Of a DNA stretch of 64,000 nt, positions 3,242-56,151 are shown piece by piece. The position numbers were made by a program, and so were the translations under genes. Origin of the DNA: Escherichia phage vB_EcoM_SP1; the sequence record MT682709.1. One strand, written 5' to 3'. The notes under the pieces were generated by a model. That model had not been told where the DNA came from. It saw nothing but the letters and a program-made list of their open reading frames with translations, and did not search any database. Within the stretch, counting starts at the first letter, position 1; each line of letters opens with the position of its first letter.

Positions 3242-3805
3242 ATGAAAACTTATGCCGAATTTTTAACCGAAGCAGCAAAATTACCATCTGAAGCAGATCT
3301 TACTAAAGTATTCTTTCAATTAGACCCAAAAGACCGTGGCGATTTTCTTAAGTGGAAAGCTAAAGCTATTGAAATGTATAACATCGATAATAGTTCTTTT
3401 ACGATGAGTCAAGAAAATAAATTCAATAAAGCATTTTTCAAAATTTCTAAGAAATTGGCATCTGGCGCTCAGGTTCCTAAATCTGCATTAGCTACTCCTG
3501 AACGTGCACCTGTTAAAATTTCTAAGAATATGTTCGACACTAAAAAATACGTTAATGCTTTGAATAAAGCTCTTGATGCATTGGATGATGCAAAGAAGGC
3601 AGCCCGTGATCTTCAAGACGTGTACACTGATTTTGATCGTAAAACTAAAGGTTCTATTTCAAATAGCGAACGTAATAGTGTAAGTGTTTATTCTGATAGC
3701 CTTGATGTTCTTGGCGATGCGTATACTGAAATTAAAAATCGTATTAACACCGCATCTAAGCTAAAAGCTGCCGCAGAAGCTATAATAACTAAACTGGATA
3801 AATAA
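3242..3805 (+). CDS. internal-protein-like protein with capsid-targeting leader (MKTYAEFLTEAA), 187 aa
   Basis: ATG 3242 with AAGGA RBS; IP-type leader then Lys/Ala-rich helical cargo. Confidence 0.6.
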   Translation: MKTYAEFLTEAAKLPSEADLTKVFFQLDPKDRGDFLKWKAKAIEMYNIDNSSFTMSQENKFNKAFFKISKKLASGAQVPKSALATPERAPVKISKNMFDTKKYVNALNKALDALDDAKKAARDLQDVYTDFDRKTKGSISNSERNSVSVYSDSLDVLGDAYTEIKNRINTASKLKAAAEAIITKLDK

Positions 3806-7627: not shown

Positions 7628-8430
<803 letters not shown>

Positions 8431-9232: not shown

Positions 9233-9811
9233 ATGAAAACGTATCAAGAATTTATTGCTGAAGCTTCTGTAGTAAAGGCAAAAGGCATTAATAAGGACGA
9301 GTGGAACTATCGTGGTGGAAACGGCTTTGACCCTAAAACTGCTCCACTTGAACGATATCTAGCCACAAAAGCTTCTGATTTTAAAGCCTTCGCTTGGGAA
9401 GGACTTCGCTGGCGTAACGATCTAAATATTGAAGTTGACGGACTTAAATTTGCTCATATTGAAGATGTTGTTGCTAGTAACTTAGATGCAGCTTTTGTTA
9501 AAGCCGACAGTGATCTTCGTCGCTGGAATTTAAAACTGTTCTCTAAACAAAAAGGCCCGAAGTTTGTGCCTAAAGCCGGTAAATGGGTCATTGATAATAA
9601 ATTAGCTAAGGCTGTCAACTACGCTGGTCTTGAATTCGCCAAGCACAAATCATCATGGAAAGGTCTTGATGCAATGGCTTTCCGTAAAGAATTTGCCGAT
9701 GTTATGGCTAAAGGCGGCTTTAAGGCAGAAATAGATACCTCTAAAGGTACGTTTAAGGACGCTAATGTTCAGTACGCTTATGCCGTTGCTAATGCAGCCC
9801 GTGGTAATTAA
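9233..9811 (+). CDS. ipIII: internal protein III
   Basis: MKTYQEFIAEASVVKAKGINKDEW... near-identical to recalled T4 IPIII. Confidence 0.9.
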   Translation: MKTYQEFIAEASVVKAKGINKDEWNYRGGNGFDPKTAPLERYLATKASDFKAFAWEGLRWRNDLNIEVDGLKFAHIEDVVASNLDAAFVKADSDLRRWNLKLFSKQKGPKFVPKAGKWVIDNKLAKAVNYAGLEFAKHKSSWKGLDAMAFRKEFADVMAKGGFKAEIDTSKGTFKDANVQYAYAVANAARGN

Positions 9812-9852: not shown

Positions 9853-10155
9853 ATGAAAACATATCAAGAATTTATTACTGAAGCGCGAGTGAGTGCAGGT
9901 AAATTAGAAGCCGCTATAAATAAAAAGGCCCATTCATTTCACGATTTGTCCGATAAAGACCGTAAGAAACTTGTAAGCCTTTATATTGACAAAGAGCGTA
10001 TTCTCGCTCTTCCTGGCGCTAATGAAGGTAAACAGGCCAAGCCTTTGAATGCTGTCGAAAAGAAAATTGATAACTTTGCTTCTAAATTCGGTATGTCTAT
10101 GGATGACCTTCAGCAAGCGGCTATCGAAGCAGCTAAAGTAATTAAAGGTAAATAA
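9853..10155 (+). CDS. ipII: internal protein II
   Basis: MKTYQEFITEARVSAGKLEAAINKKAHSFHDL... near-identical to recalled T4 IPII. Confidence 0.9.
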   Translation: MKTYQEFITEARVSAGKLEAAINKKAHSFHDLSDKDRKKLVSLYIDKERILALPGANEGKQAKPLNAVEKKIDNFASKFGMSMDDLQQAAIEAAKVIKGK

Positions 10156-52967: not shown

Positions 52968-53003
52968 TTTACAATCTGACAAGACTATGGTATAGTAGTC
53001 TTG
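52967..53003 (+). promoter_or_regulatory. early promoter with inverted repeat around the -10 (PeSL-like)
   Basis: GTTTAC 52967-52972; CAAGACTA (52980-52987) / TAGTCTTG (52996-53003) flank TGGTATAG. Confidence 0.55.
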
Positions 53004-53837: not shown

Positions 53838-54131
53838 ATGAAAAAATTTGTTTTTGCTGCAATTTTTGCTTTAGCTTCTTGCGCTGCTCAGCCTGCTATG
53901 GCAGGTTATGATAAAGATTTGTGCGAATGGTCTATGACTGCAGATCAGACTGAGGTTGAAACTCAGATTGAAGCAGATATTATGAATATCGTTGAGCGTG
54001 ATCGCCCTGAAATGAAAGCTAAAGTACAAAAACAGCTTAAGTCTGGTGGTGTAATGCAGTATAATTATGTTCTGTATTGCGATAAAAACTTCAATAATAA
54101 AAATATCATCGCTGAAGTGGTAGGTGAATAA
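53838..54131 (+). CDS. sp: spackle periplasmic protein Sp
   Basis: 97 aa with signal peptide; MKKFVFAAIFALASCAAQPAMAGYDKDLCEWSMTADQ... matches recalled T4 Sp. Confidence 0.8.
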   Translation: MKKFVFAAIFALASCAAQPAMAGYDKDLCEWSMTADQTEVETQIEADIMNIVERDRPEMKAKVQKQLKSGGVMQYNYVLYCDKNFNNKNIIAEVVGE

Positions 54132-54757
54132 TGCTTTATCAAATGCACAAGTGCAAAGACACGTACAAATATAAAGGTGCCCAGTGTTATATCATTAATC
54201 GTGAAAACGCAGGTCCAGGTCATTCGCATCAATCAAGATTTGTATTTGTTAAAAATAATGAAATTATAGCAGTTGCTAATTACGTGCTTGTGACTAGTGA
54301 TGTTAATCCGGTGCCTTTTACATATTATAATCTAATGGACTTGGCGTACGATTATAATTGGTTTAATCGTGACACTTTGGCTCATATCGAAGGCGTAGGA
54401 TTTGACATCTCTTACTCTAGTTACTCGTTGTGTCCTATGAGCCGAGCTCATAAAGAGCCTGAATATTTTTCATTTCGGCGGCGCGTAGACTTTAAACGCA
54501 GCACAGAGTATATTGGTGGAATCTTTGTTAAAGATAATCGAATTACTCGCATTATTTATCCTTTGGGTTGTGGTCAAAAAGATATTGATGTTGATTTAGA
54601 CTTTACTGAAAACATCATTAATCATATTGCTTCTGTGTATTTTGATATTGATCACAAAATTGTAATATGCGGATATGAATTACCATCGGAAAAACAGTTT
54701 AAAGTAAAAGTTTCTATTGATGACCAAATTTTTAATGCTTTTATGAATAGAGGTTAA
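54131..54757 (+). CDS. hypothetical protein (208 aa)
   Basis: ATG overlapping sp stop. Confidence 0.6.
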   Translation: MLYQMHKCKDTYKYKGAQCYIINRENAGPGHSHQSRFVFVKNNEIIAVANYVLVTSDVNPVPFTYYNLMDLAYDYNWFNRDTLAHIEGVGFDISYSSYSLCPMSRAHKEPEYFSFRRRVDFKRSTEYIGGIFVKDNRITRIIYPLGCGQKDIDVDLDFTENIINHIASVYFDIDHKIVICGYELPSEKQFKVKVSIDDQIFNAFMNRG

Positions 54758-54758
54758 T

Positions 54759-54923
54759 ATGAAAACATATAAAGAATTTATTAAAGAAGATATGGTAGCT
54801 GGAGATTCAGGTGGTAATCCTGAAAATATCTCTACTGGAACAACGTCAGGCGCTGTAGTAAATAAAGGTCCTGAACAGATTCCTAAAAAGAAAAAAGAGG
54901 AATCTAAAGAAAAAGAAGAGTAA
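54759..54923 (+). CDS. small internal-protein-like peptide with capsid-targeting leader (MKTYKEFIKED), 54 aa
   Basis: ATG 54759 right after previous stop, ends 3 nt before the gene 61 ATG; Gly/Lys-rich tail; below ORF-track cutoff. Confidence 0.5.
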   Translation: MKTYKEFIKEDMVAGDSGGNPENISTGTTSGAVVNKGPEQIPKKKKEESKEKEE

Positions 54924-54925
54924 AA

Positions 54926-55954
54926 ATGTCATCAATACCTTGGATTGATAATGAGTTTGCATATCGTGCGCTAGCTCATTTACCTAAATTCGCACAAGTA
55001 AATAATAGTTCAACTTTTAAATTACGGTTTAGATGTCCTGTTTGTGGAGATTCAAAAACCGACCAAAATAAAGCCCGTGGATGGTATTATGGTGATAATA
55101 ATGAAGGAAATATTCATTGTTATAACTGTAACTATCATGCACCAATCGGAATATATTTAAAGGAGTTTGAACCTGATTTATATCGTGAGTATATCTTTGA
55201 AATAAGAAAAGAAAAAGGTAAAAGTCGTCCAGTAGAAAAACCTAAAGAACTTCCTAAACAACCTGAGAAGAAAATAATTAAATCTCTTCCGTCATGCATT
55301 AGATTAGATAAACTGGCGGAAGACCATCCAATTATAAAATACGTAAAAGCTCGTTGTATTCCAAAGGATAAATGGAAATATCTTTGGTTTACAACTGAAT
55401 GGCCTAAATTAGTTAATAGTATAGCACCAGGAACATATAAAAAGGAAATACCTGAGCCTCGTCTTGTTATTCCAATTTATAATGCTAATGGAAAAGCTGA
55501 GTCTTTTCAGGGACGTGCATTAAAGAAAGATGCTCCCCAAAAATATATCACCATCAAAGCTTATCCTGAGGCAACAAAAATTTATGGTGTTGAACGGGTT
55601 AAAGATGGCGATGTATATGTTCTAGAAGGACCTATAGATTCGCTTTTTATTGAAAATGGTATAGCTATTACAGGCGGTCAATTAGACCTAGAAATTGTTC
55701 CATTTAAAGATAGACGTGTATGGGTTTTAGATAATGAACCTCGTCACCCTGACACTATTAAACGAATGACTAAATTAGTTGATGCAGGAGAAAGGGTTAT
55801 GTTTTGGGACAAATCTCCCTGGAAATCAAAAGATGTTAATGATATGATTAGAAAGGAAGGTGCAACCCCTGAACAAATTATGGAATATATGAAAAATAAT
55901 ATTGCCCAAGGGTTGATGGCTAAAATGCGGCTATCTAAATATGCTAAGATTTAA
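54926..55954 (+). CDS. 61: DNA primase gp61
   Basis: 342 aa; zinc-binding CPVCGDS...CYNCNYH and TOPRIM-like region; position as T4 gene 61. Confidence 0.9.
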   Translation: MSSIPWIDNEFAYRALAHLPKFAQVNNSSTFKLRFRCPVCGDSKTDQNKARGWYYGDNNEGNIHCYNCNYHAPIGIYLKEFEPDLYREYIFEIRKEKGKSRPVEKPKELPKQPEKKIIKSLPSCIRLDKLAEDHPIIKYVKARCIPKDKWKYLWFTTEWPKLVNSIAPGTYKKEIPEPRLVIPIYNANGKAESFQGRALKKDAPQKYITIKAYPEATKIYGVERVKDGDVYVLEGPIDSLFIENGIAITGGQLDLEIVPFKDRRVWVLDNEPRHPDTIKRMTKLVDAGERVMFWDKSPWKSKDVNDMIRKEGATPEQIMEYMKNNIAQGLMAKMRLSKYAKI

Positions 55955-56151
55955 ATTAACCCAACTAAAGCAAATGCTAAATCCACGAATGTATCAAGAG
56001 TAATTACTGGAATACTAACGCCATGAGCAATAGCAACTGGTGATAAAACAAAATTCCAAAGTAAAATTCCTATCATAGCAGAAATAGTAAAAGCTATACG
56101 TTTTTTATTACCTTTGATGGCATTAACAAGTGCCATTAATTTTTGTACCAT
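55951..56151 (-). CDS. small membrane protein (66 aa) on the opposite strand
   Basis: Reverse strand reads TAAGGAGGACATATG (strong SD plus ATG at 56151); two hydrophobic segments; stop overlaps the end of gene 61. Confidence 0.55.
   Translation of the reverse strand: MVQKLMALVNAIKGNKKRIAFTISAMIGILLWNFVLSPVAIAHGVSIPVITLDTFVDLAFALVGLI

Follow-up and report, generated by a model that had tools for sequence, protein, structure and literature searches.

Gene 61.1 occupies positions 54759–54923 on the + strand of the window, by which is meant the whole 64,000-nt stretch of Escherichia phage vB_EcoM_SP1 DNA (MT682709.1) analysed here. The ORF comprises 54 codons and a TAA stop (ATG at 54759, TAA at 54921–54923) and encodes the 54-aa protein MKTYKEFIKEDMVAGDSGGNPENISTGTTSGAVVNKGPEQIPKKKKEESKEKEE; a Shine-Dalgarno sequence, GAGG, was recognised from the sequence at 54750–54753 (+), 5 nt 5' of the ATG. 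The upstream neighbour is adfA (61.2; 54131–54757, +), whose 208-aa product matches the Pfam AdfA family at 2.4e-133 and whose stop lies 1 nt 5' of the 61.1 ATG. Downstream, the DNA primase gene 61 (54926–55954, +) begins with its ATG at 54926, 2 nt past the 61.1 stop. A preliminary description of this DNA had given the coordinates and strand of the ORF exactly, the ribosome-binding site is present, and the ORF is wedged between the 208-aa gene and gene 61 as that description stated. The gene order in the window (41, dmd, 61.4, an 84-aa ORF, sp, adfA, 61.1, 61, 56, soc) is the same as in T4.

The 54-codon ORF is the long-annotated gene 61.1 of T4, which is conserved across the Straboviridae and whose function is uncharacterised. 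Its product is identical to T4 61.1 (NP_049649) at 52 of 54 residues, the other two differing, and is 100% identical to F25_0034 of Escherichia phage vB_Eco_F25 (OP870144.1, Tequatrovirus). The window and this record are 100% identical over the 2.2 kb tested, the + strand of the window corresponding to the − strand of the record. Both attributes used to assign the protein to the 61.1 family were found: a full-length match to the phrog_1823 profile (residues 1–54, E = 7e-34) and a same-strand position directly 5' of gene 61. Pfam and NCBIfam scans of the 54-aa protein gave no family match (nothing in Pfam at E ≤ 1). Gene 61.1 has stood on the T4 map as "hypothetical" for decades, and the searchable literature contains gene-table mentions of 61.1 or gp61.1, with no functional study found. 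The ORFs 61.1–61.5 were reportedly described by Selick et al. in 1993 (J Virol) as conserved among T2, T4 and T6. Beyond the primase gene, a 66-aa hydrophobic ORF (55951–56151), annotated in F25 and relatives as hypothetical, runs on the − strand and shares 4 nt with the 3' end of gene 61; a terminator-like hairpin is present on the + strand at 56114–56139.

Three parts can be distinguished in the protein. Codons 1–10, MKTYKEFIKE (54759–54788, +), form a CTS-like leader of the internal-protein type, ending in a gp21-type [L/I]-x-E cleavage motif, I-K-E, at codons 8–10 (54780–54788, +). Codons 11–42, DMVAGDSGGNPENISTGTTSGAVVNKGPEQIP (54789–54884, +), form a conserved core, a paralogue of the N terminus of mature gp23* (the N-fist and the start of the N-arm). 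Codons 43–54, KKKKEESKEKEE (54885–54920, +), encode from A-runs a Lys-rich tail that aligns with M98-V-R-R of gp23.

Conservation and relatives of gene 61.1

The preliminary description had called the ORF an orphan and had held that its absence from all related genomes would speak against it. The first statement was wrong and the absence was not found, as tblastn detected homologs in 1432 phage records, including phages of Escherichia, Klebsiella, Aeromonas, Acinetobacter and Vibrio. Among 1.84 billion representative proteins, a profile search recovered 51 family members or clusters of 50–251 aa. The dN/dS of the gene is 0.05–0.3, with synonymous sites saturated between genera, and judged by this pattern 61.1 is a conserved coding gene under purifying selection. 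The ORF is very short, has no Pfam or NCBIfam match and has no protein-level class in T4, all of which would suit a spurious ORF or a decaying fragment of a gene 23 duplication. The number of phage records, the low dN/dS at saturated synonymous sites, the good ribosome-binding site and the 51 family members speak against this; the conservation pattern effectively refutes the view that 61.1 is not a gene, and the chance that either version is right is negligible.

The alignment of the short forms contains 19 invariant columns, almost all of them within residues 10–44, whereas the leader and tail vary more. The tail is variable in sequence, yet Lys/Arg-rich in all relatives. In T6- and G28-type phages (P0002, P0004) a frameshift in the A-runs of the Lys tail (window ~54885–54923) gives a 62-aa variant, ...PKKKKRNLKKKKSKNVINTLD, that reads into the start of gene 61, and because of this variant the tail sequence is evidently dispensable or slippage-prone.

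Many distant relatives are long forms of 120–250 aa, in which an N-domain of ~100 aa stands in place of the leader and is followed by the core and a Lys/Arg-rich tail. Long forms of 120–180 aa (phrog_2086) occur in Vibrio phage VH7D, Aeromonas phage CC2, Acinetobacter phage DP45, RB69-type, S16-type, Enterobacter and many other phages. The long homologs, which include the KVP40-type "gp61.1 conserved hypothetical", Aeh1 61.1 and proteins of Acinetobacter, Salmonella S16-type and RB69-type phages, share with 61.1 the core, the [LIVM]-x-E junction, the Lys-rich tail and the pre-primase position, and differ from it in carrying a helical N-domain instead of a 10-residue leader. Only positions 109–154 of the 156 in the phrog_2086 profile match 61.1, from which the ~100-aa helical N-domain is absent. 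In an AlphaFold2 model of a long form (pLDDT 61), the helical N-domain has a pLDDT of 75–87 and the core a pLDDT of <50. A BFVD fold search returned uncharacterised relatives only, larger proteins included; on the N-domain side, unnamed proteins of 387–913 aa were also matched. Comparison of the N-domain with adfA, RB49 Dc1/Dc2, the gp23 propeptide and the other neighbours tested gave no similarity beyond gp23 residue ~48. In environmental T4-like phages the N-domain was also observed fused to other C-terminal modules, in a 399-aa protein and in ORFs of ~195–230 aa lacking an N-fist-like core (L147 5230–6426; L155 10540–11124; L175 4692–4087; L177 6144–5449; L209 5072–4458), and it may be a general carrier module.

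Similarity to the gp23 cleavage junction and N-fist

BLASTP aligned residues 2–38 of 61.1 with residues 57–93 of F25 gp23 without gaps (16/37 identical, 36.2 bits, E = 1e-8), and an hhalign comparison of 88 family cores with 32 gp23 N-termini matched 61.1 residues 4–47 to gp23 residues 59–102 (98.9% probability, E = 3.6e-17). When a 61.1-family HMM was run against 1218 ORFs of at least 30 aa from the window and the head-gene locus, only the family itself and gp23 matched (gp23 E = 1.8e-14); a profile of the short forms, searched against all PDB sequences, matched T4-type gp23 chains only (best E = 8.9e-6). Some relatives are nearer gp23 still, with ...AEVIGDSGYDAENIASGVTSGDV... against AEIGGDSGYDAQNIAAGQTSGAV in gp23. 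A counterpart of the gp23 junction and N-fist (gp23 residues 59–102) is found in 61.1, and on the strength of these alignments the homology of its residues 4–47 to that segment is real. The case is built on targeted comparisons, because the profile search of the 1.84 billion representative proteins gave no gp23-length protein at library-wide significance; a homologous-protein search with the gp23 N terminus as query returned fragments only. Co-variation between the 61.1 core and the cognate gp23 was also examined, and the near-invariance of the gp23 N-fist left that test without power. The core and tail had been described at first as a Gly/Ser/Lys-rich tail. Its Lys-rich end is indeed there, but the rest is not filler, the BLASTP, hhalign, HMM and PDB comparisons indicating a paralogue of the gp23 cleavage junction and N-fist.

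The alignment places Glu10/Asp11 of 61.1 at the Glu65/Ala66 cut of gp23. In the BLASTP alignment Y4, F7, I8 and E10 of 61.1 correspond to gp23 F59, F62, L63 and E65; since Y4, F7 and I8 fall on F59, F62 and L63, the internal-protein leader pattern is therefore also the pattern at the cut of gp23 itself. The gp23 segment at residues 57–102, which comprises the end of the propeptide, the Glu65/Ala66 cut, the N-fist and the start of the N-arm, is thus homologous to 61.1 in the register of the cut, and like 61.1 it is disordered alone. AlphaFold2 modelled the 54-aa protein with low confidence (pLDDT 60) except for a short leader helix, and the core is probably disordered on its own. The two differ in that the hydrophobic MGMVRR of gp23 is replaced in 61.1 by the Lys-rich tail. 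The Gol region of gp23 (~residues 93–122) lies just downstream of the segment copied in 61.1. The Gol peptide (Lit/EF-Tu exclusion) resembles 61.1 in being a short N-proximal piece of gp23 and has an activity of its own, but it belongs to the gp23 chain and has no separate gene. Mimicry of the Gol peptide by 61.1 was set aside, as the copied segment ends at about the point where Gol starts.

Deposited labels for 61.1 include "hypothetical protein", "major capsid protein" and "major capsid domain-containing protein". No Pfam family matches 61.1 at E ≤ 1, the Gp23 domain with its HK97-fold body included; PF07068 spans gp23 residues 88–517, and 61.1 has only 54 residues. A role for 61.1 as a capsid protein or subunit is excluded, the HK97-fold body and the first 56 residues of the propeptide being absent. 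Since the current Pfam Gp23 model covers gp23 only from residue 88 onwards and gives no match to 61.1, the "major capsid" labels are mis-annotations that have propagated, presumably from the short gp23 similarity. Records mislabelled in this way include OP870144.1 (F25_0034), PV390659.2 (XQU42784.1), PQ571308.1 (XPO97851/2) and others, and in some of them adfA is mislabelled too.

According to gp23 structural papers, gp21 removes a propeptide of exactly 65 residues from gp23. Residues 66–105 of gp23* are disordered in the unexpanded head, inside which they lie, probably touching the scaffold, and after expansion they move outside to form the N-arm and the N-fist, the latter being the first 25 residues of gp23* (structural papers). 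The N-fist touches four subunits and helps to build the Soc site, and the head-length mutations A66D, A94V and G97S map to this N-terminal segment of gp23* (structural papers). These properties invite the idea that a freed 61.1 peptide docks on gp23* wherever the N-fist of a neighbour is missing, as at gp24 vertices or the portal, or that it modulates head expansion or length. The contacts of the N-fist with four subunits and the Soc site agree with such a role, as does the presence of the head-length mutations in the segment, 61.1 naturally having Asp at the equivalent of A66. The T4 head structure papers examined describe no such extra component, however, a disordered 44-residue peptide carrying a charged tail would hardly be expected to serve as a structural element, and no phenotype is known; a capsid-lattice accessory of this kind seems improbable.

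A leader resembling capsid-targeting sequences

Translated in six frames, the window contains seven copies of the motif M[KR][TS][YF]x[ED]F[IL], all of them at the start of an ORF, compared with an expectation of 0.004 from residue frequencies and a mean of 0.005 in 200 triplet shuffles. The other six leader ORFs (343–615, 676–984, 3242–3805, 8149–8430, 9233–9811 and 9853–10155, all +) start with MKT[YF]xEF[IL]xE, and for five of them the matching PHROGs carry an internal head or virion protein annotation. The sixth, a 187-aa leader ORF at 3242–3805, matches only phrog_2280 (unknown function), and its RB69 counterpart shares the leader. Over the first 33 nt, 61.1 is identical to the six other leaders at 23–29 positions, the same range as is found among those leaders.

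For capsid targeting the N-terminal 10 residues of IPIII are sufficient; within the T4 CTS, targeting depends mostly on positions 4 and 7, and processing by gp21 on positions 8 and 10 (review of Black's work, PMC9026906). Cleavage by gp21 follows the Glu of I/L-x-E (PMC12991175, preprint). Sequence features that define a CTS are present in 61.1, with Y4 and F7 at the targeting positions and I8-K9-E10 as the gp21 processing motif; K5 and K9 differ from IPIII, at positions that also vary among the genuine leaders of this window. The residue after E10 is Asp in 61.1, as against Ala or Ser in all six other window leaders. The preliminary description had identified MKTYKEFIKED as the internal-protein leader, and the match of the first 10 residues to the six window leaders and to the CTS rules bears this out; the ORF is also, as was noted there, far from the ip loci, ~45 kb from the ip-type ORFs of the window in this genome. 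With Y4, F7, I8 and E10 present and K5 and K9 at variable positions, it is fair to suppose that 61.1 could be packaged and cut.

Upstream of the core, [LIVM]-x-E is kept in all forms, as IKE, LNE, VTE, LSE or VEE in the short and LFE, LYE or LNE in the long. Short forms of distant lineages keep an N terminus of the MK[TS]F-x-E[FL] type, even with a long linker (P0029, P0034, P0051). The leader has drifted in other lineages, to MKSFKEVMNE (F7 to V) in the JS98 type and MTLLEKYKQSLSE in the L042 type, and the enterobacterial long forms are without the aromatic P4/P7 pattern. Set beside the internal-protein leaders of the same phage, those of RB69 are canonical and the JS98-type 61.1 leader has drifted; a search of RB49 from 40 to 90 kb revealed no further leader-type ORF. 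Co-variation of the 61.1 leader with internal-protein leaders is unsupported, and the evidence runs mildly against it.

Leader-like sequences recur elsewhere in the family. In some long forms (P0040, P0042, P0054, P0058, P0061) a leader-like motif follows the Lys tail, or an extra domain is preceded by ...FKQFVE..., and an environmental long form (L161/L218) reads ...MFTFKQFVEE/APANN... at the junction of N-domain and core, with Ala following FKQFVEE. When IMG/VR was scanned for the leader type of RB49 61.1, M-x-x-FKQFVE, 79 loci were found, nearly all of the matches lying at the extreme N terminus of small unrelated ORFs on environmental T4-like contigs, many of them between helicase and primase homologs. 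An MK[TS]FKQFVE leader is seen on dozens of unrelated small ORFs in loci L144–L222, often between gp41 and gp61 homologs. From its sequence, the helicase–primase interval of environmental T4-like phages looks like an internal-protein-type locus. RB49 61.1 itself (L008 2501–2677) overlaps the dc1 stop by 4 nt (ATGA) and is separated from gene 61 by two small ORFs; its N terminus, MIGFKQFVEE/NKLKE/D, contains two possible gp21 sites.

Genomic context and expression

A primase homolog lies downstream of the 61.1 family in 60 of 60 loci examined, at a gap of 2–50 nt in most. The distance from gene 41 to the 61.1-family gene ranges from 3 to 3175 nt in these loci, and adfA is nearby in only six of them, so the 5' neighbour is not kept beyond close relatives. 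In RB49 and a few others, other ORFs intervene between the 61.1 homolog and gene 61. The constant primase neighbour, and the position of the family member directly after gene 41 in some phages, would suit an accessory of the replication module acting with the helicase–primase genes, its Lys tail perhaps binding DNA or the primosome. A variant of this explanation makes 61.1 mainly a device for translational coupling and late transcription of the primase gene; coupling is plausible because the Shine-Dalgarno of gene 61 is weak in this window (AAGAAGAG), and a late-promoter box could serve gene 61. The stop and start codons are indeed 2 nt apart, but the peptide is strongly constrained, not the unconstrained product of a coupling uORF, and an ORF serving purely for coupling would not keep 19 invariant residues, a dN/dS of 0.05–0.3 and homology to a capsid segment. 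As nothing ties the gp23 N-fist to replication, and the intervening ORFs of RB49 and a few others also speak against it, a replication or expression role is judged unlikely.

A late-promoter-like box, TATGAATA (54742–54749, +), with one mismatch to the T4 late box TATAAATA, starts 17 nt and ends 9 nt before the ATG. The exact TATAAATA is found 21–32 nt 5' of the ATG in 11 of 44 distinct relatives; of the 680 starts of other ORFs in these loci that served as control, 18 have it (Fisher p = 2e-7, uncorrected for phylogeny). ATAAATA lies ≤45 nt upstream in 18 of the 44 relatives (41%) and at 25 of the 680 control ORF starts (Fisher p = 7e-13, likewise uncorrected for phylogeny). The window's TATGAATA falls in the same 45-nt upstream region as these boxes but nearer the ATG (17 vs 21–32 nt). 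Because the flanking sequence is not conserved, the box itself is, on this comparison, the conserved element in the relatives, and it points to late, morphogenetic expression in those that bear it. Within the window no exact TATAAATA occurs between 30146 and 56786. Other morphogenesis genes (40 and soc) also lie in this otherwise early region, and early-type promoters are present at 52968 and 53466 with no terminator between them and 61.1. A MotA-box-like TAATGCTTTT (54733–54742, +), followed after 12 bp by TAATAT (54755–54760), resembles a T4 middle promoter; a transcript from this putative promoter would begin within codons 3–4 of 61.1 and give a gene 61 mRNA unable to make 61.1.

In a time-resolved T4 proteome, the 61.1 mRNA is classed as early and the protein-level class is NA (supplement of PMC9697503), which we read as not quantified. 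Text searches of a T4 particle mass-spectrometry paper, supplementary files included, gave no mention of 61.1. Mass spectrometry can readily overlook a 4.6-kDa peptide that has few tryptic sites; the peptides predicted are the tryptic EDMVAGDSGGNPENIS[T/I]GTTSGAVVNK, the semi-tryptic DMVAGDSGGNPENIS[T/I]GTTSGAVVNK starting from D11, and GPEQIPK.

The early expression of 61.1 in T4, before heads exist, is in keeping with the possibility that 61.1 remains in the cytoplasm and acts outside the capsid as a mimic or decoy, imitating the gp23 junction and N terminus. It might compete for gp21, buffering or timing the protease; it might interact with a partner of nascent gp23; or it might dampen a host defence that detects gp21 activity or gp23. 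Its leader would then be merely conserved junction sequence without a targeting role. Known targets for such a decoy would exist, since host CBASS CD-NTases are triggered when gp21 cuts a loop containing I/L-x-E (preprint, PMC12991175) and a gp23 peptide located in the first quarter of that protein activates the Lit protease (PMC3014915). Conservation is strongest in the core and not in the leader, the core is predicted to be disordered, as would be expected of a linear-motif mimic, and the T4-type neighbours dmd and adfA are counter-defence genes. On the other side, the Gol region lies C-terminal to the stretch of gp23 that 61.1 matches, 61.1 has no known defence phenotype, and its near-universal presence in Straboviridae of very different hosts is unusual for an anti-defence gene. 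The neighbouring anti-defence genes are not conserved with 61.1, and the late boxes of many relatives fit morphogenesis equally well or better. A decoy function is thus a credible minority possibility.

Proposed role in head assembly

The reading that we favour, although tentatively and at somewhat less than even confidence, is that 61.1 is a prohead-targeted mini-protein that would be cleaved by gp21 to release a 4.6-kDa N-fist-like peptide; more generally, it is probably a small head-assembly or protease substrate. The protein would consist of a 10-residue capsid-targeting leader ending in I-K-E, a copy of ~32 residues of the N-fist segment, and the Lys-rich tail. It would be recruited to the assembling scaffolding core through the leader, in the manner of the internal proteins and the N-terminal region of gp23; in the long forms this task would fall to the N-domain. 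Cutting by gp21 after Glu10, in register with the cut of gp23 after Glu65, would then free a 44-residue, intrinsically disordered peptide of 4.6 kDa inside the prohead. This peptide might stay with the DNA and be injected, fill N-fist docking sites, or exit through capsomer pores as scaffold fragments do. The recruitment, the cleavage and any role after cleavage are inferred. The leader that follows the CTS rules, the E10/D11 register, the gp23 homology, the conserved [LIVM]-x-E and the late boxes of relatives all support a prohead substrate.

Several observations count against this reading. Once processed, the T4-type peptide would have an acidic pI of 5.0, whereas the internal proteins are basic. 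The mRNA is of the early class in T4, the protein class is NA, 61.1 is not mentioned in the T4 particle mass-spectrometry study, and T4-type phages have TATGAATA only and not TATAAATA. Asp follows the predicted cut, some lineages have a degraded leader, and the enterobacterial long forms are without the aromatic pattern. A head function also leaves the invariant position beside the primase gene unexplained.

Comparison with IPI, IPII, IPIII and other CTS cargo of T4 (Mullaney & Black 1996, via PMC9026906) shows both likenesses and differences. These proteins share with 61.1 an M-K-T-(Y/F)-x-E-F-(I/L)-x-E leader that ends in a gp21 site, and the internal proteins are, like 61.1, small with a charged tail. 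They are, however, hypervariable, basic and clustered in ip loci, with Ala or Ser after the cut, whereas 61.1 is conserved family-wide, acidic once processed (T4-type), located at the primase gene and has Asp after the cut; some relatives of 61.1 also carry a ~100-aa domain where the leader would be. Basic, rapidly diverging ip-locus cargo is therefore not what 61.1 looks like, given its conservation from T4 to Vibrio and Acinetobacter phages, its processed pI of 5.0 and the ~45 kb between it and the ip-type ORFs. Presence in the head has been shown for the internal proteins, and 61.1 is placed beside them by sequence criteria.

A broader and more speculative proposal, which we consider rather unlikely, is that 61.1 and its long relatives constitute a separately encoded, family-wide N-fist module that would present the gp23 junction to the protease, the lattice or both independently of the capsid subunit. 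Such a module may be a timer or decoy for gp21 or a filler of N-fist sites. The internal-protein leader would on this proposal be derived from the motif at the gp23 junction (aromatic-x-x-F-[ILV]-x-E), and 61.1 would be what survives to connect the two.

Significance

What was not found described before is the combination in 61.1 of a leader, a gp21 site and an N-fist copy, together with the division of the family into long and short forms and the late-promoter box. The recurrent GenBank annotation of 61.1 as a major capsid protein is corrected, and the analysis suggests an origin for the capsid-targeting leader used in T4 protein-delivery vectors. The joining of leader, gp21 site and gp23* N terminus in one small protein, its conservation from T4 to Vibrio, Aeromonas and Acinetobacter phages and the late box in many relatives make 61.1 directly testable. 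Should it act as a decoy, 61.1 would be relevant to the recently reported ability of CBASS to sense prohead proteases, and that possibility is of greater interest because cleavage of an I/L-x-E loop by gp21 triggers CBASS and a gp23 peptide triggers Lit. If it is packaged, the 61.1 peptide would add a conserved component to one of the best-studied virus heads.
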